DNA from: Actinomycetota bacterium
GTDB lineage: Bacteria > Actinomycetota > JAICYB01
NCBI GenBank assembly: GCA_040905525.1
Contig: JBBDRJ010000006.1
Location: forward strand, 268,858-332,857
Reading direction: 5' to 3'
DNA length: 64,000 nucleotides
Part shown: piece after piece, positions 1,303 through 10,089 of the stretch
Layout of the letters: the number at the start of each line of letters is the position of its first letter
Numbering within the stretch: position 1 is the stretch's first letter
Notes under the pieces: model-generated
Told to the model about the DNA's origin: nothing
What the model saw: the letters and a program-made list of their open reading frames with translations, nothing else
The model's database searches: none
Made by a program: the position numbers and the translations under genes

Positions 1303-1309
1303 GACTTGG

Positions 1310-1353
1310 CGTCGGGCCGCCGGGATTTGAACCCGGGACCTCTTGACCCCCAG
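1310..1353 (-). repeat. attR: 44-bp direct repeat, partial 3' copy of tRNA-Pro (last ~42 nt of tRNA plus 2 nt)
   Basis: cgtcgggccgccgggatttgaacccgggacctcttgacccccag is identical 44/44 to 10014..10057. It contains the T-arm and acceptor 3' half of the tRNA but no 5' half, so it is not a functional tRNA. Confidence 0.9.
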
Positions 1354-1503
1354 CTATCGCGAAGAATGCGGCGTGCTCGCAGGCATAGCCGCATGTCGAT
1401 TCACTCCGAAACTACGCGGAGTCATGCGCTGTGCGCGAAGCCCTCCTCGAAGCCCCCCGCTGTCGCCGATCCGGAGGATCCGCTCAAACGAGGAGAAGGA
1501 ACA

Positions 1504-2016
1504 TTGACCAATCTGGCCAGAGCTACCGACCGCTCAGAACGCGTCCGTGAGGTGTTGGACTACTACTACGGCCGCGGGCTCGATCTCGCCGCGGCAATCG
1601 ACGACGGATACGTCGTCTTCGCCAGCCGCACGCCAACTCGCTTGCGGGACAACGATCGCCCTGAGGTCATCGAAAAGATTCGCGCGAACAGCGTCCAGTG
1701 GTGGGGCGACGAGGAGTGGACTCGCGACCACCTGCTGCGCTGCCACGGATGGTCTCCGGAGCGCGTGGAGGCCTGGTGGACGGGTGAGGATCCAACGTCG
1801 TGGGACCCGGGCAACCCCAACCAGCACGATGAGCATGGCCAGGAGCACTACATCGATGTCGTCGAGGCGGCGCGGGCCATGCCGGTGCCCCACCTCCACG
1901 ATGCCTTCAGCGCCGTCGCAACCGTGCTCGGCGGCGACAACCCACGCTTCCATGCCGTCGGGTCCATCCTCGAGATCCTCATGCACTTGGAAGAAGGCAG
2001 CAGCCCGCTCGTCTAA
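1504..2016 (+). CDS. hypothetical protein (element cargo)
   Basis: TTG start at 1504 preceded by a strong SD, aggagaagga at 1491..1500. 170 aa with no recognisable motif. The track's longer version from 1306 would read through the att repeat and is rejected. Confidence 0.5.
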   Translation: MTNLARATDRSERVREVLDYYYGRGLDLAAAIDDGYVVFASRTPTRLRDNDRPEVIEKIRANSVQWWGDEEWTRDHLLRCHGWSPERVEAWWTGEDPTSWDPGNPNQHDEHGQEHYIDVVEAARAMPVPHLHDAFSAVATVLGGDNPRFHAVGSILEILMHLEEGSSPLV

Positions 2017-2163: not shown

Positions 2164-2610
2164 ATGACCAAGCTCGCTGAGCTGATGACGGCGATCAACC
2201 TCATCGCCACCGACCTCGAGAATCAACTCGATCCCGCGCTGCCGACCCACGAGCGCGAGCTCTACGCCAGACCGCCGGCCATCCTGCCCGATCACTGCCC
2301 GATGCTCGTGGTGTTCACCGAAAGCTTCGCCTGGGATCTCGTGGCAACACCGAGTCACTACTTCGTGCGTCCCGATGTTCGCGTCGGATGGTTCGTCGCG
2401 GCGGCCAAGGAATCAGAAACCGCGGACGGATTCGAGGAGCTGATGCTTGCGCAAGCGACGATCGCCGACCGCATCGCGGATCGACTCACCACGTACAGCG
2501 AGGGGCTACCCGGTCAGGTCGGGACCTACGCCAAGATCATCGAGACGACGACCGAGCGAAGCGACGGGCCGGTGTTCGGTTTCGTGCATCGCATGGAGCT
2601 CGAGCGTTGA
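2164..2610 (+). CDS. hypothetical protein (element cargo)
   Basis: 148-aa ORF with high-GC third positions and no recognisable motif. Confidence 0.45.
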   Translation: MTKLAELMTAINLIATDLENQLDPALPTHERELYARPPAILPDHCPMLVVFTESFAWDLVATPSHYFVRPDVRVGWFVAAAKESETADGFEELMLAQATIADRIADRLTTYSEGLPGQVGTYAKIIETTTERSDGPVFGFVHRMELER

Positions 2611-2642: not shown

Positions 2643-3032
2643 ATGAGTTTAGCGGCGTGTGCAGACAAGGATCCGTCGCTCTTCTTTTCGAAGAGCTCGA
2701 GGGCCGCTGCGGCTGCACGAGAGATCTGCGCGTCGTGTCCCGTCCTGACTCCTTGCTTGGTCGATGCGCTCGAGCGCGGAGAGAAGCACGGGATCTGGGG
2801 TGGGATGAGCTTCAAAGAGCGTCAACGGACCCGTTCGAAGCTGCCCCAGGATCTACGCTCCTACATCACGCAACGCGTGCGACAAACCAGCGACCTTTGC
2901 CCGACCTGTCTTTCGCAACCGATCCAGAATCACACGACGGGATGGTGCTCGACTTGCACGGCCGAATATCAACATGCGCAACGAAGCACGTCTACCCAAT
3001 GCCCATCTGACCGCGACGCTGCATCCGGATGA
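2643..3032 (+). CDS. whiB: WhiB-like (Wbl) transcription factor with C-terminal CxxC-x12-CxxC zinc-ribbon extension
   Basis: MSLAACADKDPSLFF...CASCPVLTPCLVDAL...HGIWGGMSFKERQR shows the four Wbl cysteines and the G[VI]WGG turn followed by a basic tail. A ~65-aa tail then carries CPTC-x12-CSTC. SD gagga precedes the ATG. The 3' end overlaps the convergent tape-measure gene by 41 nt. Confidence 0.8.
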   Translation: MSLAACADKDPSLFFSKSSRAAAAAREICASCPVLTPCLVDALERGEKHGIWGGMSFKERQRTRSKLPQDLRSYITQRVRQTSDLCPTCLSQPIQNHTTGWCSTCTAEYQHAQRSTSTQCPSDRDAASG

Positions 3033-5001
3033 GCTCGTCGCGGATCGTCCGCGCCAACTGTTGATCTCTTCCGCCACCGCCACCGCCGCCGCTCACGTTT
3101 ACCGTGTTGTAGTTGTTCACGACCATCGAAGAACGCGAACCTCGCGGGCTGCTTCCGCCGGCGGCGAGCCGAATAGCTAGACCTCGATTTCCGCCGGAAA
3201 GCCCGCCGACGGGGCCTCCGTCGTGCATGAGCGCGATGCGCTTGACTAGTTCGCCCTGCCGCGTGTTGCGGAGCCCCTTGAGATTGGCGAAGAAGGATGG
3301 GGTGAAGAACCCGGTAGTCCTGGGGTCGTTCACATATTCGCCGGGGATCAGCTTCGCATCGACCTCACGGCGGCCCACATTGCCGCCGCCGTGGAAGGAC
3401 GCGGCCGGCGACACGAGCCCTCCATCGTGGAAGAGCTTCACGATGCGCTGGAAAATCGTTACCGTCTTGTTCGCGATACTCCCGATCCAGCCCTTGACGC
3501 GATCGACGATGCTCTTGGAGTTGCCGGGGTCGACCTCGACGCGGGGACGAGCGGTATGTCCGGTGAGGCCGTTCAGGTCCCCGTGCACGCCGTTAATCTC
3601 ACTTCGTGCCGGCGCTCCTGTCGCGTCCAGCGTCGACATCGTGTGGACGGCCCCCACGTTGTCCAGGGCCGACCCCGTCGACGAAATCGTGCTCTTGGCG
3701 GGCGCGTCATTGGCGTCGAGCTTGGCCGTCGCCGTCGTTTCAGCGAATGTGTTTAGCACGGTCCCGGCTGCAGGAACCTTCTCGTGGATGTCGGAGTCGT
3801 CGAGCGAGATTTTCGGCGCGATGGGGATGGAGTTGATGTCGCGCATCTGCTTGTCGACGATGCCGAGCTTGTCCAGGAGAATCGAGACGCCCGCGACCGC
3901 CGCGGCGGTGCCGATGACCAACGTGAAGGGACTGGCCAACAGGCCCTTTATGAGGCCGAGCTTGGTTGCCACCCCGCCGAGCTTTCCGGCTCCCTGAGCC
4001 GTGCCTGCCGCGGCCCCTACGCTGGCGATGTCCTTCGCGGCCTTGGCCATCTTCCAAGTAGAGACGGCCGTTGACAGCCTTGATACGACCGACAGGACCG
4101 GGCCGAGGACGATCGCGATCGCTCCGGCATGCACGACGACGTCCTGCATGCCGGGTGAGAGCTTCTCGAAGGCACCCGCGAGCGCCTCTGCGCCTCCCGC
4201 GAGCTTCTCGTACATCTTCACCCTGATGGGATCTATGGCGGCACCGAGCTTCTCTTCTGCTTCACCCATCCGATTCGTGGCCTGAGCGACTTTACCGGCA
4301 CCCTGGGCGTAAGCCTCGGCCGACCCGCCGAACTGGTCCTTGAGCTCGCCGAGCATGATGTTCTGGGCACCGAGCAGATCGCCTGATTCGACGAGGGCCT
4401 TGATTGCCTTCTTCTGATCGTCGCTGAATTGAACGCCGGCCCTGCCCATCGCCGCGATGCCCTTGATGGGATCGTTCAGCGCTTTACCGATCATGATCGT
4501 CGCGCTCTCGAGGTCGGCTCCCTCGGAGACTCCCTTGTTCATGGCCGTGGCCATGTCGAGGATGGCCGTCTGAGCCTGGTCGAAAATTTTGTTGCCCTTT
4601 CCAACTTCATTGCGGACGTTCTTGAACGTGAGCAACAAGTTGGAGCTCTGCGTGACGGCTTCGTCGTCGAAGGCTGTGAGCTTCTGCATCGACGACGCGA
4701 GCTTGTCCACGTCGCCGGCCGTGACGTTCGCAGCGCCACCCGTCGACTTGATGACCGCGCGCGTCTGACCGATCGCGGCCTGCGATTCCCGAAATGCCTT
4801 GGCCGACTTACTAGCCAGCAGCAGCAGCGGAGCGGTTACTCCGACCGTGAGCGCGTCGCCGACCTTCTTCGCGCCCTGGCCGAACTTCTTAAGGCCGGCG
4901 CCGACTTGGTCGTTGCCTTTGCCGATCTTCTTCTGCTCGCGCAGGACCTGTGATGCATCCGCGGTGTAGCGGACGTTGAGGTCCCTGTTGCCGCCGCCCA
5001 T
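2992..5001 (-). CDS. phage tail tape measure protein (TP901/TMP core-like N-terminal region)
   Basis: 669 aa. The Ala/Gly/Lys-rich helical N-terminal ~250 aa (…KKFGQGAKKVGDAL…MQKLTAFDDEAVTQSSNLLLTFKN…GKALNDPIKGIAAMGRAGVQFSDDQKKAIKALVESGD…) is typical of TMP core. Gly-rich C-terminus. Confidence 0.8.
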   Translation of the reverse strand: MGGGNRDLNVRYTADASQVLREQKKIGKGNDQVGAGLKKFGQGAKKVGDALTVGVTAPLLLLASKSAKAFRESQAAIGQTRAVIKSTGGAANVTAGDVDKLASSMQKLTAFDDEAVTQSSNLLLTFKNVRNEVGKGNKIFDQAQTAILDMATAMNKGVSEGADLESATIMIGKALNDPIKGIAAMGRAGVQFSDDQKKAIKALVESGDLLGAQNIMLGELKDQFGGSAEAYAQGAGKVAQATNRMGEAEEKLGAAIDPIRVKMYEKLAGGAEALAGAFEKLSPGMQDVVVHAGAIAIVLGPVLSVVSRLSTAVSTWKMAKAAKDIASVGAAAGTAQGAGKLGGVATKLGLIKGLLASPFTLVIGTAAAVAGVSILLDKLGIVDKQMRDINSIPIAPKISLDDSDIHEKVPAAGTVLNTFAETTATAKLDANDAPAKSTISSTGSALDNVGAVHTMSTLDATGAPARSEINGVHGDLNGLTGHTARPRVEVDPGNSKSIVDRVKGWIGSIANKTVTIFQRIVKLFHDGGLVSPAASFHGGGNVGRREVDAKLIPGEYVNDPRTTGFFTPSFFANLKGLRNTRQGELVKRIALMHDGGPVGGLSGGNRGLAIRLAAGGSSPRGSRSSMVVNNYNTVNVSGGGGGGGRDQQLARTIRDELIRMQRRGQMGIG

Positions 5002-5107
5002 CTACCTAAACCATCCGGGGAGTGGGAGCCGGGCAGACGGAGTCGCTCGCCTGCGCTATGTCCCCGGCCCCCACGCCATTGTGAGAAGAGCTCCCCGGAG
5101 ATCGCAT

Positions 5108-6487
5108 CTACGCTGGGACAATGCCGTCCAGGATCTGGAAGGCAGTCGGGCGCATGACTTGTATGTCGCCTCGGAAGTGCCCGAGGAACCCGACCTCGCC
5201 AGTGTCGGCGAAGTGCTCGCGCAAGACCATCACGTCGAGCTCCAGGCGCACGCCGAGCACGAGGTAGCGCCACTCGCCGACATACGCCTTCGACTCATCG
5301 GTGCCGACGCCACCATCGACCGGGATCTTCTGCGTGTCGAGCATCGGAAGGTTGTCCTCGAGGTAGGCAGGGGGTCGCAGGTACTGTCCGGTGCCGGCGC
5401 CTTCGCGCAAGCTGCCCAGCGCCGCCGCATCGCGCACGGCGCCGATGAGTCGTCCCGGCCGGAAGTTGCGCCCTCTGACCGTGCTAACGGCGGTGATGAG
5501 CTTGTCGTAATCGATCTCGCCCACCGTCGCCGTCTCGGGGACACCGACCGTGGCGTCGAGTCCCGTCGGCTGGTCGTTGGTTCCATCACCCAGCAGCGCG
5601 GCGCGATCCCACTCGGCGGCGAACGCGGCGGCGAACGCGGTGGTGAGCAGGTCGTCGACAGCGATGCCTGAATCCTGCATCGCTTCCCACGAAACCCGCG
5701 CGATGACGGCCAGCGACTTCGGATCGAAGGTGAGACTTGAAAGCGTTGGTTCGGACTCACCGATCGCGCCATGCTCGGCCCTCCACGCGACGACGGGATC
5801 GTCGACGAACGCCGCAGCTTTCACTTGACCTTCCCGCAGCGGGATGACCGCAGCGCCGGCTTCCACGACTCGCGAGAACGCTCGGGCCGCGTCGAAGATC
5901 TCGGGCAAGACCCCCGTCGGAAAGAGTCCGCCGGTGCCGGCCGTTCCCGTCCCGATCTGGCGAAGCTCCGCCACCGTTGCGTGATCCTCCATGGCCATGG
6001 CTCGCAGATAGCGGCCAAAGCTCCCGGCCGGTGCGTCCGTGACACCCGGAAGCGAGCGGAAGCTCGTTCCGGCCGGCAGTGGGCGTCCGAAGTCCGCTCG
6101 CGCGTGCTCAGGAGTTCTCCCGTCGGCCGGGCGTTCCTGGCCGCGTGTATCCGAGAGGTCGGCGGCTTCGGCATTGCGTCGGCGCTGCGCTGTTTCGGCG
6201 CGGTCGCCGGCGGCCTCCTGCCGGGCGACTTCTTCGGCCATCCGCTCGAGCCGGCGGAGCTCGAGGATCTCATTGTCGAGCTGATCGAGCGCTCGCTGCT
6301 CGGACGCTAGAGGCGCCACGTCACGACTGCCGTCGGGCCTTTCGTTGGATCGATTCGCGATGGTGGATCGGACAGCCGCCGACATTCGCCGGCGCTCTTC
6401 TAGGGCCTCGCTACACATCTGCACAGCCTGGTAAGCGGATCCGCTCTCGTACTCCGTGCGGATACGCGACAGGAGTTCTGTGAACAT
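5108..6487 (-). CDS. phage major capsid protein, HK97 fold, with N-terminal coiled-coil (delta/scaffold-like) domain
   Basis: Coiled-coil N-terminus followed by …GTGGLFPTGVLPEIFD…TFDPKSLAVIARVSWEAMQDSGI…, typical of the Phage_capsid (HK97) family. Start chosen at ATG 6487 because of SD gggagg 5 nt upstream; alternative in-frame starts at 6508 and 6538. Confidence 0.8.
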   Translation of the reverse strand: MFTELLSRIRTEYESGSAYQAVQMCSEALEERRRMSAAVRSTIANRSNERPDGSRDVAPLASEQRALDQLDNEILELRRLERMAEEVARQEAAGDRAETAQRRRNAEAADLSDTRGQERPADGRTPEHARADFGRPLPAGTSFRSLPGVTDAPAGSFGRYLRAMAMEDHATVAELRQIGTGTAGTGGLFPTGVLPEIFDAARAFSRVVEAGAAVIPLREGQVKAAAFVDDPVVAWRAEHGAIGESEPTLSSLTFDPKSLAVIARVSWEAMQDSGIAVDDLLTTAFAAAFAAEWDRAALLGDGTNDQPTGLDATVGVPETATVGEIDYDKLITAVSTVRGRNFRPGRLIGAVRDAAALGSLREGAGTGQYLRPPAYLEDNLPMLDTQKIPVDGGVGTDESKAYVGEWRYLVLGVRLELDVMVLREHFADTGEVGFLGHFRGDIQVMRPTAFQILDGIVPA

Positions 6488-6669: not shown

Positions 6670-6981
6670 TCAAGGCTCCCCCGTGAGACGACGAAGGCCG
6701 GCGTCGGGATCGAGCGCGTCGCGAATGACCAGAGCATCAACACGAAAGAGCGGCGTGCCGCTCACTGAGTACTCCCAGTACGAGACGCCGTCGATGTGAC
6801 AGTCACGCCAAATCACCGGCTCGCCCCGCTCGATGGCGTCGATAACACGATCGATGACCTCGGGATCCTGCCGCGAGGTCCAATCGCGCAGATACAGCTT
6901 GACCAACGTGCAGATCACGTCGGAACCGGGGACTTGTGCGTCGTCTCCGTTCGAATTTCCGTCCGAATATTCGTCGTTCAT
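6670..6981 (-). CDS. hypothetical protein (element cargo)
   Basis: ATG at 6981 with SD ggagg 4 nt upstream. 103 aa. The track version starts at 7032. Confidence 0.5.
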   Translation of the reverse strand: MNDEYSDGNSNGDDAQVPGSDVICTLVKLYLRDWTSRQDPEVIDRVIDAIERGEPVIWRDCHIDGVSYWEYSVSGTPLFRVDALVIRDALDPDAGLRRLTGEP

Positions 6982-7094
6982 CCGGCCTCCTTGGGCGGCC
7001 GCGCATTTCGTCGGGACCGACGGAGCGTCCAATCCCTCAGAGGCGAGTGGAGCACACTCTCCCGCCTAAAAAAACGAGCGAGGCATGGAAGACA

Positions 7095-7162: not shown

Positions 7163-7513
7163 TCAAGGACGCTTTCCGACGCGTTCCAGCATCTTGCTCA
7201 CGGATCTGTCGTGTGCCGCCGTGACGCGCCGCACGTCCTCGTGGTGCTCGACGTCGGTCACCCAGCCCGTCGCGTGTGGTGCGATCCGTCCCTCCTCGTG
7301 GGCGCCCCCCGCGTCGGCGTGGGCCGACGAGACCGCTCGCCTCCGGAGGCCGTCGAAGTGCTCGCGCGCCCACTGCCCGTACAGCGTGCGTGCCTCGCCC
7401 TCGTCCTCGGCGAGCTTTTGCCTTCCCCACCAATGCCCGTGCTCGTCTTCGACGAGCAACTGCACGCGAAAAAGCCGCACGGCTCCACGACGAAGCTCAC
7501 CGAGCCGCGGCAC
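7163..7513 (-). CDS. hypothetical protein (element cargo)
   Basis: GTG start with SD aaggga. Overlaps the upstream HTH gene's stop by 17 nt. Confidence 0.5.
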   Translation of the reverse strand: MPRLGELRRGAVRLFRVQLLVEDEHGHWWGRQKLAEDEGEARTLYGQWAREHFDGLRRRAVSSAHADAGGAHEEGRIAPHATGWVTDVEHHEDVRRVTAAHDRSVSKMLERVGKRP

Positions 7514-8228
7514 GGCGGACTCCCTTCGCTCGCCGGCCGTCGCGGCCGATCTCCGTCGAGATCCACGTGAGGAACCCGCGTCGCCGATTCTTGTGCCGTC
7601 GCGACGGTGGCCTCGACTCGAGCCACGTCAGGTACTTGCGGAGCTCGACGTCGTAGAAGACCTGCGTCCCGCGCGTGAGCTCGTCGATCCGTCGCCAGAA
7701 GTCGACGTCGTGCAGATCATCCGGCGCATCTAGCTCGACGAGCAGTGCCCTGACGTCTTCGAGCTCGCCCCACGAGCCGTTGCGCGCGCGGGCGGCTTCT
7801 GCCGCATGCGCGTCCTTCGGTTCTAAGGACGGTTCAGTAGGACGGTTCCTTGCAACCCCGTTGGTACAATCGACGGCCCGAATTGGCACAATCGACGGCC
7901 CACTTGGCACATCCATGCCAGGCAGGGGTGTACCGATTCCTGACACATCCCTCATGCCGAGGATGGCGTAGCGATTCGTCCGCCTCCCTGGCTTGCGGCC
8001 CCATCCCATCCCCGGTTCGATGGCGAGCTCGCCGGCCGCGACGAGACGTTTCAAGCTGGCCTGCACCGTCGCCGGCGAGCAACGCGACTCCCGCGCGATC
8101 TGGCGGATCGAAGGGAACGACGACGAGCCGTCCGCGTGCGCGTGGTTGGCGATCGCCAGCAGCACGAGCCGCGCGTTGCCCTTGGCCTCCGAATGCTCGA
8201 GCACCCAGGCCAAAGCCTGGACGCTCAC
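7497..8228 (-). CDS. winged helix-turn-helix DNA-binding protein (phage/plasmid Rep-N or regulator-like)
   Basis: N-terminus MSVQALAWVLEHSEAKGNARLVLLAIANHAHADGSSSFPSIRQIARESRCSPATVQASLKRLVAAGEL matches the wHTH seen in actinophage/plasmid replication-initiator and regulator N-domains. GTG start overlaps the upstream stop as GTGA. Confidence 0.65.
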   Translation of the reverse strand: MSVQALAWVLEHSEAKGNARLVLLAIANHAHADGSSSFPSIRQIARESRCSPATVQASLKRLVAAGELAIEPGMGWGRKPGRRTNRYAILGMRDVSGIGTPLPGMDVPSGPSIVPIRAVDCTNGVARNRPTEPSLEPKDAHAAEAARARNGSWGELEDVRALLVELDAPDDLHDVDFWRRIDELTRGTQVFYDVELRKYLTWLESRPPSRRHKNRRRGFLTWISTEIGRDGRRAKGVRRAAAR

Positions 8229-8491
8229 GCCGGCTCCGGCTGTTGGTCTCGCCGCGATCGTGAGCGCGACCGCTTGAACGCCAAGCCGGACATGTAGGCC
8301 CGCATCGCGGCCTGGGCGCGTCGCTTCCGCTCCCGTTCGGGGAGTCGGCCGTCTGGATCTACCTCACGCTCGAACCGGGCGAGGAACGCTTCCCGGCCGG
8401 CCTTGGTCGTCTCGCGTGAGTCGTGCTTCGAGTGCAGCGCGTAGGCGCCCATGCGCGCACGCATAGTGCGTTGTGCTGGTGTGAGAGACAT
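8225..8491 (-). CDS. small basic hypothetical protein (88 aa), possible excisionase/regulator
   Basis: ATG start. Arg/Lys-rich. Stop overlaps the HTH start. A hairpin (cgggct…agcccg, ~8505..8535) lies upstream. Confidence 0.45.
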   Translation of the reverse strand: MSLTPAQRTMRARMGAYALHSKHDSRETTKAGREAFLARFEREVDPDGRLPERERKRRAQAAMRAYMSGLAFKRSRSRSRRDQQPEPA

Positions 8492-8562: not shown

Positions 8563-8997
8563 TCAACCCGAGGACAGAACCTTGGACAGCACCACGCGCT
8601 CGGCGGTCATCCACCGCGGCTGACCGTCATCGAGCACGTCGGTGGCCGTCGCATGGAGCTGATCGATGGTGGAGACGATTTGCCGCTGGCATGAAACACA
8701 GCGTGGCACGAAGCCGACTCGAAACCGCCACGTCCTGTGCTTTCGCTCTCGGAACGTGTGAAGGGTCACGTTGCCGTTGGGGTCGGATCGATCGACGACC
8801 GTCACTTCACTTGCCCACTGCACACGGGCGTAGTCGGCCTGTTGCCAAAGCACGTCGCCCTCCCCCTCCAACCGCATGACGGCGCCCATCAGCCGCGTCT
8901 GATCCCTTCGATGGTTGTGACTCAAACAGTGGGCGTAGACGGTTTCGAAGAAGGGCTGGACCACGATCTCCCCTGGCCACTGGAAGTGGAGCGCCAT
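8563..8997 (-). CDS. hypothetical protein (144 aa) translationally coupled to integrase
   Basis: ATG at 8997..8995 overlaps the integrase TGA by 1 nt. Contains HCLSHNH and a CVSC motif. Only this 3' part of track ORF 8563..9723 is accepted; the rest is out of frame inside int. Confidence 0.5.
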   Translation of the reverse strand: MALHFQWPGEIVVQPFFETVYAHCLSHNHRRDQTRLMGAVMRLEGEGDVLWQQADYARVQWASEVTVVDRSDPNGNVTLHTFRERKHRTWRFRVGFVPRCVSCQRQIVSTIDQLHATATDVLDDGQPRWMTAERVVLSKVLSSG

Positions 8998-9932
8998 CAC
9001 AGCCGGTCCCCCAGCGAGAGCCGCCGGTGTGCGGCGATCGCGCGCTCGCCGGCCGTGGAGCTCGCGTAGCGCCGCACCATCTCGCGGGAGCGCCACCCAG
9101 TGATGCGCATGAGATCCCCTTCCTCGCCGCCGGCGGCCAACCAGTTGTGCGCGAAGGTGTGGCGGAGCTGGTGCGGAAAGACGTGACCGATGCCGGCCTG
9201 CTCGCCGCGGCGCTTCACCATCTGGCGCACGCCCGAGGTTGTCATCTGTCCGCGCGCTCCGAGGAACAGCCAGGGCGAGGCCGCGTGATTGTGCTCGCGC
9301 CGCACGCGCAGGTAACGATCGACCGCGCGTGTCGTCCTGGCGCCGATGGGTAGAGCTCGCGCACGGCCGCCCTTGCCCGTCACGAAGACGAGTCCGGCGT
9401 CGAGGTCCAGATCGCTGTCGTCGTCGTCTGGTATATGGCGCACCCCGACCACCTCGGCCAGTCGCGCTCCGGTGTCGATGAACGTGCGCAGGACGGCCGT
9501 GTCGCGGCGATCGACAAAGCCTCGGCCCCCGCACGTGGCCAGCAGAGCGGCCAGAGCCGCGTCTGAGAGCACGGGGACGGGTTGCTCGGGTACGTGAGGC
9601 GGCGTCATGCGTTCCATGGGCGAGCGCGCGACGTCGCCTTCGTCGGCCGCCCATTTCCAGAACTGCTGGAGGGCCTTGAAGCGGTTGAGGGCCGAGGCCG
9701 GCTTCTGCCGAGTCAGCATCCATTCGAAGAAGCTCTCGAGGTGCTCGCGCGTGATCGAGCCCACGCGCCGCGGCATGCCCACCTCGGCCAGGAACCCGTC
9801 GAGCAGCGTCAGGGCCGAGGTGTAGGAGTAGACGGTGTTCTCGGAGCGGTTGGCGGCGCGCAGGTGGCGACGGAAGGGCCCGGCGAGCTCGGTCAGAGCG
9901 TCGGCTTGCGTCCTCGAAATCGTCCCAGTCAT
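8997..9932 (-). CDS. int: tyrosine-type site-specific integrase
   Basis: C-terminal [12 protein letters not shown]…[17 protein letters not shown] (R..H..R..Y catalytic pattern). Adjacent to tRNA-Pro. Confidence 0.9.
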
Positions 9933-10013
9933 GTGCTATTTATACGGAGTGCTAGTGACGAGGACGGGGGCCGGAATGGCAAAGGCGCAGGACAGCGCCC
10001 TTTTCGTCGGGCC

Positions 10014-10057
10014 GCCGGGATTTGAACCCGGGACCTCTTGACCCCCAGTCAAGCGCG
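10014..10057 (-). repeat. attL: 44-bp direct repeat (within/abutting tRNA-Pro 3' end)
   Basis: Identical to 1310..1353. Confidence 0.9.
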
Positions 10058-10089
10058 CTAACCAAGCTGCGCTACGGCCCGTAGGACAG
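10016..10089 (-). tRNA. tRNA-Pro (anticodon GGG)
   Basis: Reverse complement GGGCCGTAGCGCAGCTTGGTTAGCGCGCTTGACTGGGGGTCAAGAGGTCCCGGGTTCAAATCCCGGCGGCCCGA folds as a cloverleaf. Anticodon loop is CU-GGG-GG. CCA is not encoded. Confidence 0.9.

Follow-up and report, generated by a model that had tools for sequence, protein, structure and literature searches.

Adjacent capsid and tape measure genes on an 8.7-kb tRNA-Pro island of an uncultured actinobacterium: a probable phage satellite

The DNA analysed here is a 64,000-nucleotide stretch of an uncultured actinobacterium (contig JBBDRJ010000006.1, positions 268,858 to 332,857; hereafter the window), and it contains an island of 8,695 bp (repeat start to repeat start) inserted in a tRNA-Pro gene. 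On this island the gene for a 459-aa major capsid protein (5108..6487, minus strand), which has an HK97 fold and, fused to it at the N-terminus, a helical domain of scaffold/delta-like type, is followed directly by a gene for a tape measure protein (TMP; 669 aa; 2992..5001, minus strand), the two open reading frames (ORFs) being separated by a spacer of 106 nt (5002..5107, minus strand). The ORF calls agree with the coordinates, protein lengths and gap given in the original prediction, a reading of the DNA made without database searches. The island is delimited by a direct repeat of 49 nt, 45 nt of it identical (1309-1353 and 10004-10048): the left copy (attL, 1309..1353) duplicates the 3' part of the tRNA gene, and the right copy (attR, 10004..10048) forms the 3' part of the intact tRNA-Pro(GGG) gene that served as integration target (10006..10081, minus strand). 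This arrangement is the classic signature of integrase-mediated insertion into a tRNA gene. From the tRNA side, the minus strand encodes a tyrosine integrase, orf144, orf88, an HTH_36 protein, orf116, orf120, the capsid protein and the TMP, while orf206, orf148 and a WhiB-family gene face the other way on the plus strand. This gene set was defined by frame-specific G+C content at third codon positions (GC3) together with profile searches; all eleven ORFs are open and show coding-type GC3, and the G+C content is about 65% throughout the window. By exact-sequence look-up, the proteins of the element recur unchanged in two NCBI metagenome-assembled genomes (MAGs; locus tags WD646_ and WD179_, proteins MEX0875291/2, on contigs of 550,743 and 397,067 bp), indicating that the element is stably present in that population.

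The capsid protein matches the Pfam family PF05065 (1.9e-32, 113 bits with a cut-off of 24.2), the equivalog model TIGR01554 major_cap_HK97 (2.2e-36, 125.8 bits with a cut-off of 27.5) and PHROG_10 (1e-41). A strong Shine-Dalgarno sequence, AGGGAGG, lies six nt upstream of the ATG at 6487, which makes this start preferable to the TTG at 6673 that was called mechanically. In an AlphaFold2 model based on 20 homologues (mean predicted local distance difference test score, pLDDT, of 82), two long N-terminal helices (residues 2-48 and 61-109) precede a disordered linker and the HK97 fold, and the model's top Foldseek match in the PDB is HK97 Head II (2ft1, E 1.7e-13), with the RcGTA capsid and actinophage capsids among the further best matches. 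The HK97 fold proposed originally was thus recovered by the structure check, and the modelled helices indicate that the "delta/scaffold-like" N-terminus proposed with it is real. Foldseek also matched encapsulins (9fy6 and 8wol, at E values of about 5e-11 to 7.5e-11), as might be expected if the protein were a domesticated capsid that forms an encapsulin-like nanocompartment or another host structure on an integrative element. We consider this reading extremely improbable, since phage and gene transfer agent (GTA) capsids score better in the same comparison, the equivalog match is to the HK97 model, the protein carries a phage-type scaffold domain, a TMP gene and no cargo-type enzyme gene lies beside it, and its relatives sit with phage-type replicases and integrases.

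The TMP has no match in Pfam or NCBIfam, so that its assignment rests on PHROGs, on BLAST matches to annotated TMPs and on the genomic context of its homologues. It matches PHROG_27166, "tail length tape measure protein", at 6.9e-30, and over residues ~70-304 it shares 40-49% identity with TMPs annotated in phages of Gordonia, Dinoroseobacter and Rhodobacter, in line with the identity first proposed for it. The nearest database homologues (47-51% identity) span the N-terminal ~45% only and are encoded in ordinary siphophage tail modules, where they fill the TMP position behind the genes for tail tube and chaperones; on the island, the TMP gene instead stands directly after the capsid gene, which is an unusual placement. 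Two hydrophobic segments lie in the centre of the protein (residues 285-314 and 348-382), and its C-terminal half (residues ~330-669), which is without database homologues, bears xHxGG motifs.

The search for further structural or packaging genes covered all eleven ORFs with the hidden Markov model (HMM) libraries Pfam, PHROGs and NCBIfam, some searches being run at E values up to 10, and compared five of the six orphan ORFs (all except orf88) with 50,697 phage genomes by tblastn. Neither the three libraries nor tblastn detected a portal, terminase, protease, tail tube, chaperone or lysis gene in the element. The six orphans (orf206, orf148, orf120, orf116, orf88 and orf144) have no match in the three libraries, and orf206, orf148, orf120, orf116 and orf144 have none among the phage genomes; exact look-up finds the orphan proteins only in the two sister MAGs, where they are annotated as hypothetical. 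The original prediction that nothing else structural is present therefore holds at the level of sequence profiles, a level that does not reach very remote folds, and its suggestion that orf116, orf103 (within orf120) and orf144 could be remote versions of the small terminase subunit (TerS), a portal or an adaptor found no match in the profile libraries or by tblastn. A single-sequence AlphaFold2 model of orf148 was poor (pLDDT 47) and had no Foldseek match with E <= 0.001; faint matches that would make orf148 a connector or terminator protein (9ilv, 9d94 and 2gjv, probability <= 0.14) were judged to be noise. As predicted, we are thus dealing with a bounded 8.7-kb island that is unable to make virions alone. 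It combines an integrase and replication functions of its own with an incomplete virion gene set, as satellites in general do. A reading as an actinomycete integrative and conjugative element was rejected because no element ORF contains an FtsK/SpoIIIE-type Tra domain or a RepSA-type replicase domain, and a reading as a GTA was considered and likewise rejected.

An exhaustive HMMER search for the capsid protein returned 457 homologues with E <= 1e-30, the closest of them just 40-52% identical, and scans of genome, metagenome and viral sequences with the capsid gave only capsids of <= 40% identity. For the locus scan, a 6-sequence capsid alignment was used, a 20-sequence alignment being too diverse. 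All close relatives with readable context (35-52% identity) lie in small islands with integrase, excisionase or replicase genes (loci L002, L004, L018, L045, L046, L077 and L078), and in none of these was a portal, protease or terminase gene detected beside the capsid gene. In L002, for example, an integrase, an HTH_17 protein, an AAA_25 replicase and the capsid protein are encoded between glnA and other host genes. L018 (374-11465 of DATKBB010000047, a Candidatus Limnocylindria MAG) measures 11.05 kb and lies at tRNA-Arg, with perfect att repeats of 43 nt; the capsid gene is its sole structural gene, accompanied by an AAA_25 replicase and GNAT plus PRC-barrel cargo. It shares with the window element the integrase (49% identity), the capsid protein (35%) and orf88 (8225..8491, minus strand; 48% identical to L018 2014-2265, which there adjoins the related integrase), so that the sharing crosses phyla.

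The capsid-TMP pair itself recurs. In five other islands (L004, L057, L065, L055 and L010) a TMP gene lies ~90-620 nt after the capsid gene, the capsids of the last four being more distant (about 35-40% identity). L004 encodes an integrase, an HTH_17 protein, three small ORFs, the capsid protein and then a 940-aa TMP of family PF10145; L065, on a TARA scaffold from a marine metagenome, has a PF20155 TMP at +90 nt and an integrase adjoining tRNA-Arg; L055 has a PHROG_10574 TMP and an integrase adjoining tRNA-Ser; and in L057, whose flanking host genes we take from a DUF1559 domain to be of Planctomycetes type, a PHROG_9483 TMP at +188 nt is followed by an integrase and then by host genes. L010 (5709-15040 of GG704596.1, from the cultured marine Rhodobacteraceae isolate Silicibacter lacuscaerulensis ITI-1157) is a 9.28-kb island bounded by 51-nt repeats of a tRNA-Thr 3' end, with a 612-aa TMP and an HTH (helix-turn-helix) replication protein accompanied by 52-nt repeats; between its capsid and TMP genes lies a gene for a TerS that shares 49% identity with the one from Brucella phage BiPBO1. 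A P4-type integrase, an AlpA-like gene and a small HNH-like ORF of L010 were assigned by eye from the sequence. The TMPs of these islands belong to different families, and the capsids belong to one clade, which points to a repeated, selected pairing rather than to shared deletion scars.

This recurrence bears on the simplest alternative, that a siphophage integrated at tRNA-Pro and lost all but its integrase, replication, capsid and TMP genes, the adjacency of the last two being a functionless deletion scar. Such a defective prophage would fit the ordinary siphophage tail modules in which the nearest TMP homologues reside, the ordinary HK97 family of the capsid and the fact that no helper is visible within the 64-kb window. 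We nonetheless regard it as very unlikely. The marks of a degraded prophage (pseudogenes, truncated structural genes, decayed att sites) are not seen: the att copies are identical over their 45-nt core, the ORFs are open with coding-type GC3, and the capsid and TMP genes are full length. The compact layout of replicase, small ORFs, capsid and TMP recurs in at least five other islands with different TMP families, and again in Extracellular Prophage-Inducing Particles (EPIPs), which are packaged as ~11-kb genomes; independent deletions are an unlikely repeated source of such a layout. The closest capsid relatives, moreover, are never found beside portal, protease or terminase genes. Homologues embedded always in complete structural modules would have spoken for a simple deletion remnant, and they are not so embedded: the closest capsids sit in small islands, and the pair is present in the five islands named above. 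For the same reasons, namely intact att sites, intact ORFs and recurrent architecture, the variant offered in the original prediction, a recently pruned prophage whose two largest genes are kept for a host function, is disfavoured.

A wider census of large ORFs within 5.5 kb of the capsid gene (104 ORFs at 31 further loci) found 14 integrases and 10 AAA_25 replicases, with only 5 large terminase subunits (TerL) and 3 portals; in a seed-based map, many loci have a replicase 0.2-2 kb upstream of the capsid gene. By contrast, L075/L076 show the canonical order of phages, where a portal gene stands upstream of the capsid gene and the TMP gene about 4 kb downstream; at L081, a locus found through its TMP homologue, the TMP gene lies about 4.9 kb downstream of the capsid gene. 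The large post-capsid ORFs of L074, L073, L014, L030 and L022 were considered as TMPs and rejected: in these loci, as in L020 and L023, the gene directly after the capsid gene encodes an HK97-type portal (PHROG_12, E down to 1e-119), so that they form a separate "capsid plus portal" variant. The capsid gene of L014 and that of L073 each have an integrase gene some 2 kb downstream, and the capsid ORFs of L022, L020 and L023 are 576-595 aa long. These unnamed capsid islands thus resemble the window element in their capsid clade (35-52% identity), in the integrase, excisionase or replicase genes beside the capsid gene and in their integration at tRNA genes where boundaries could be seen, but they differ in their extra morphogenetic genes (none, TMP, TerS plus TMP, or portal), in their cargo (GNAT, TIR or Fic, as against WhiB in the window element) and in their small ORFs, which are not conserved from one island to another.

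The known elements closest in layout are the EPIPs, ~11-kb satellites of a Mycolicibacterium aichiense prophage (PMC12822802, bioRxiv December 2025), which were isolated experimentally as infectious small-headed particles with heads of 32-51 nm and long, variable tails. Besides a scaffold, a capsid protein and a TMP, they encode an HTH protein, a serine integrase, TerS, an adaptor and a stopper, their intergenomic similarity to one another ranges from 58 to 99%, and they trigger the helper prophage upon infection yet lack antirepressors (PMC12822802). In the GenBank records (Alyssa1, OR387110; WillG, OR387121) the HTH protein is followed by four small ORFs, the scaffold, a 274-aa capsid protein, a gap of 73-76 nt and a 651-aa TMP, and the capsid and HTH proteins belong to PF05065 and HTH_36, the same families as in the window. 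EPIPs and the window element therefore share a small genome, an actinobacterial host, an HTH_36 protein, small ORFs, a scaffold function, a capsid gene followed after 73-106 nt by a gene for a TMP of ~650-670 aa, and one or more reverse-oriented orphan genes beyond the TMP gene, and both are without portal, TerL, protease, tail tube and lysis genes. They differ in that the EPIP integrase is of the serine type whereas that of the window element is a tyrosine recombinase; that TerS, a Gp19-type adaptor and an HCP-type stopper are present in EPIPs and were not detected in the window element; that the EPIP scaffold is a separate 156-aa protein whereas the scaffold domain of the window element is fused to the capsid protein; and that EPIPs have ~11-kb genomes and are known as particles, whereas the window element, 8.7 kb long, lies at tRNA-Pro with a WhiB gene and is known only as an integrated island.

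A profile of the capsid clade aligned with the EPIP capsid by hhalign (probability 97.2%, E 3.6e-11), and phmmer linked EPIP capsids to those of L057, L065 and L010, EPIP TerS to the post-capsid ORF of L078, the WillG HTH protein to that of L004 and the EPIP serine integrase to that of L046; all phmmer E values refer to a database of only 448 sequences. In the same searches, the sole direct match of the window HTH_36 protein was the HTH_36 protein of L077 (6.5e-7), and its equivalents in L004, L055, L065 and EPIP WillG belong to the same linked cluster through intermediate sequences. A match of the TMP profile to the WillG TMP (E about 1e-15) is confined to the hydrophobic, variable middle of the protein and was taken as compositional, not as homology. 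Because of its integrase type, the undetected TerS, adaptor and stopper, the fused scaffold and the lack of sequence relatedness, the window element is outside the EPIP group in the strict sense, and its layout is EPIP-like.

Why a satellite would carry a TMP has a tested answer in the PLEs of Vibrio cholerae, which encode a TMP, a tail assembly chaperone (TAC) and BhuB and whose chimeric tails contain the PLE TMP (PMC12987554, Nature 2026). Deleting the PLE tmp gene cuts transduction by 96-99.9%, and the protein acts as a ruler, since the tails are 10 nm shorter, as the difference in length predicts; putative tmp genes are also present in some phage-inducible chromosomal islands of the capsid-forming type (cf-PICIs) (PMC12987554). 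PLE11, PLE1 and PLE4 resemble the window element in having a TMP of their own, which in the PLEs replaces that of the helper, but they differ in using the helper's capsid, in encoding a chaperone and a baseplate hub, in having a myovirus helper, and in sequence and host. The cf-PICIs and the Streptomyces satellites MiniFlayer, MulchRoom and Ando have, like the window element, an HK97-type capsid protein of their own, and they make small heads. They differ in carrying a complete set of head and packaging genes (portal, protease or scaffold, connectors, TerS/TerL and HNH), of which only the capsid was detected in the window element, and MiniFlayer, MulchRoom and Ando lack a TMP. The phiRv1 and phiRv2 elements of Mycobacterium tuberculosis are ~10-kb prophage-like elements with integrase, replication and capsid genes that are too small for autonomous phages; unlike the window element, they have genes for a prohead protease and a terminase-like protein and are not known to have a TMP. 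Given that EPIPs have a capsid gene followed by a TMP gene, that PLEs use their own TMP and that some cf-PICIs have putative tmp genes, the claim that the element fits no described category and could found a new class did not hold up.

We conclude that the element is probably an integrated phage satellite of a capsid-plus-tape-measure type, with a layout similar to that of EPIPs; the satellite reading, already offered in the original prediction, is the best one. Most likely, the element belongs with the kind of satellite first described in late 2025 while differing from it. Beyond the integration, the gene identities and the recurrent architecture described above, its function and mechanism can be modelled on its gene content and on the EPIP and PLE precedents. 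Infection by a compatible helper siphophage, or induction of one, would lead the element to excise, to replicate from its own origin and then to express its capsid and TMP genes. The capsid protein, with its own scaffold domain, would assemble on the helper portal and form small heads with room for about 9 kb, so that the helper genome would be excluded, and the helper terminase would package the satellite DNA; as no TerS was found, this step calls for a helper-type cos or pac site in the element, unless one of the orphan ORFs is a TerS that went unrecognised. In tails made of helper tube, chaperone and tip proteins, the TMP of the satellite would take the place of the helper's, yielding satellite-specific chimeric tails as in the Vibrio PLEs, with a length of ~100 nm by a ruler of 0.15 nm per residue. 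The reverse-oriented block of WhiB, orf148 and orf206 probably forms a module that is expressed while the element is integrated and that serves regulation or benefits the host.

Several points weigh against this conclusion. The excision and packaging of the element, and its helper, are conjectural. No helper prophage lies within the 64-kb window, no TerS gene and no cos or pac site was identified in the element, and no tail assembly chaperone to accompany the TMP was detected there. Blastp between window and EPIP proteins, which covered all but orf144, gave negligible similarity, confined to the capsids at E 0.008, and hhalign between the window TMP and that of EPIP Alyssa1 was negative, the two TMPs being unrelated in sequence. 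Two of the capsid-TMP islands, L004 and L057, lie on truncated contigs, so genes may have been missed there. The ruler meets a difficulty of its own: EPIP tails measure 284-385 nm and the helper tail 134 nm (PMC12822802), and the 651-aa EPIP TMP predicts a tail of ~98 nm by the ruler rule, far below the published values. The step in which the TMP sets tail length is made uncertain by this excess, and the redirection of a helper's tail length that was suggested earlier is only inferred, EPIP tail length defying the simple ruler expectation. No explanation that we considered accounts for the EPIP mismatch.

The same mismatch is one of the points that would favour a satellite in which the TMP-like protein is no ruler but an ejection or pilot protein, or an injected effector that, for instance, induces a resident helper prophage upon entry through residues ~330-669. 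During siphophage infection, TMPs are ejected into the cell envelope before the DNA. Database homologues of the window TMP span just the N-terminal ~45%, and EPIPs induce their helper without antirepressors. Even so, this is pure inference, the C-terminal half has ordinary TMP features in its hydrophobic segments and xHxGG motifs, and the PLE TMP does behave as a ruler, with tails 10 nm shorter; we think the idea quite unlikely.

The pair could instead serve defence. In an assembly-interference island, the capsid protein and TMP would act as dominant-negative decoys that poison the head and tail assembly of incoming phages and thereby shield the host population, and transfer would be rare or never occur. 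Interference with tail assembly, including the targeting of TMPs, is an established defence strategy (PMC11364771, PMC10884400), with Rta as a further example (PMC12987554), and two sister islands carry defence-like cargo (TIR_2 in L046, Fic in L077). Known satellites, however, both interfere with their helper and transfer, so that defence does not exclude the satellite model; the scaffold-plus-HK97 architecture of the capsid protein is complete and its fold is predicted with high confidence, no usual region is missing from the full-length TMP, and EPIPs with the same gene pair form infectious particles. We therefore hold defence as the main role of the island to be unlikely.

If the satellite reading is right, its implications extend beyond this locus. 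Until 2025, satellites were held to pirate helper tails unchanged, and the PLEs and EPIPs showed that a tape measure of their own is possible. With a capsid protein and a TMP and no detectable TerS, connector or chaperone, the window element is the most stripped-down example so far, and this gene set suggests the minimum that a satellite needs to claim both head and tail of a helper. The capsid-TMP elements come from Actinomycetota, an alphaproteobacterial isolate, a contig whose flanking genes are of Planctomycetota type and a scaffold of a marine metagenome, and the sequences compared suggest that islands of this sort are common and not confined to one phylum; the examples retrieved come mostly from metagenome assemblies rather than from studied strains. 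More speculative, though by no means far-fetched, is the proposal of a largely undescribed class of minimalist satellites, spread across phyla and defined by a capsid-TMP pair next to a tRNA-targeting integrase and a replicase of O-like or AAA_25 type, with EPIPs as its first cultured glimpse. Its members might re-specify the head and the tail core or DNA-ejection device of a helper, the window element doing so without packaging or connector genes of its own, and a function specific to satellites, for example helper induction, might reside in the C-terminal half of the TMP, which is not conserved. L010 resides in a cultured marine Rhodobacteraceae isolate, which makes it a tractable model in which the hypothesis is directly testable. 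For genome annotation, HK97 capsid genes beside replicases and integrases are unreliable prophage markers.

The remaining genes of the element lie on either side of the capsid-TMP pair. The integrase, a XerC/D-like tyrosine recombinase of 311 aa (8997..9932, minus strand), matches PF00589 (1.6e-22) and PHROG_1 (7.7e-42). Its stop is overlapped by the start of orf144 (8563..8997, minus strand), which was recognised by its frame-specific GC3 signal. The HTH_36 protein (243 aa; 7497..8228, minus strand) is of the lambda-O-like replication-initiator type, with matches to PF13730 (6.4e-12) and PHROG_1032, "replication initiation protein" (7.8e-17). Between it and the capsid gene lie orf116 (7163..7513, minus strand; GC3 0.80) and, immediately upstream of the capsid gene, orf120 (6670..7032, minus strand; GC3 0.72), which would encode 103 aa if translated from an internal ATG.

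Two tandem 19-nt repeats inside the HTH_36 gene (7861..7901; 2 matches, 0.08 expected) are candidate origin iterons. Tandem repeats in or just after replication-protein genes were also noted in L065 (3037-3135, 3 x 33 nt, inside its O-like gene), L046 (7230-7319, 5 x 15 nt) and L010 (9048-9153, 2 x 52 nt), likewise as candidate iterons, and our analysis suggests that the repeats of the window element and the similar ones of L065 and L010 could be lambda-O-style origins. For the 106-nt spacer between the capsid and TMP genes, the predicted RNA structure does not surpass that of shuffled sequences (z -1.44, not significant). A promoter scan found nothing, and terminator-like sites occurred at chance level. 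Outside the island, the window from 10100 to 64000 appears, by eye from N-terminal sequences, to hold ordinary chromosomal housekeeping genes (for example der, cmk, scpA/B, pyrG, recN and arg-type genes), and no phage genes were seen there in this reading.

On the plus strand, opposite to the capsid operon, orf206 (1396..2016; GC3 0.78) corresponds to a mechanical ORF of 1306-2016 whose N-terminus is a translated att/tRNA fragment, and orf148 (2164..2610; GC3 0.80) is annotated as hypothetical protein WD646_02700. The third plus-strand gene encodes a WhiB-family regulator of 129 aa (2643..3032; PF02467, 2e-16; PHROG_472, 1.2e-15), with its ATG start at 2643 confirmed by translation. It occupies a position equivalent to that of the cargo found beyond the capsid module in sister islands (TIR_2 at 11694-12674 of L046, Fic at 6167-7393 of L077 and GNAT at 7856-9097 of L018), which may be defence or toxin cargo. 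The WhiB and TMP genes converge, with an overlap of 41 nt at the 3' end of the latter, and the WhiB GC3 of 0.66 is noticeably below the 0.77-0.86 of the neighbouring genes; the low GC3 and the convergent overlap may reflect recent acquisition or antisense regulation.

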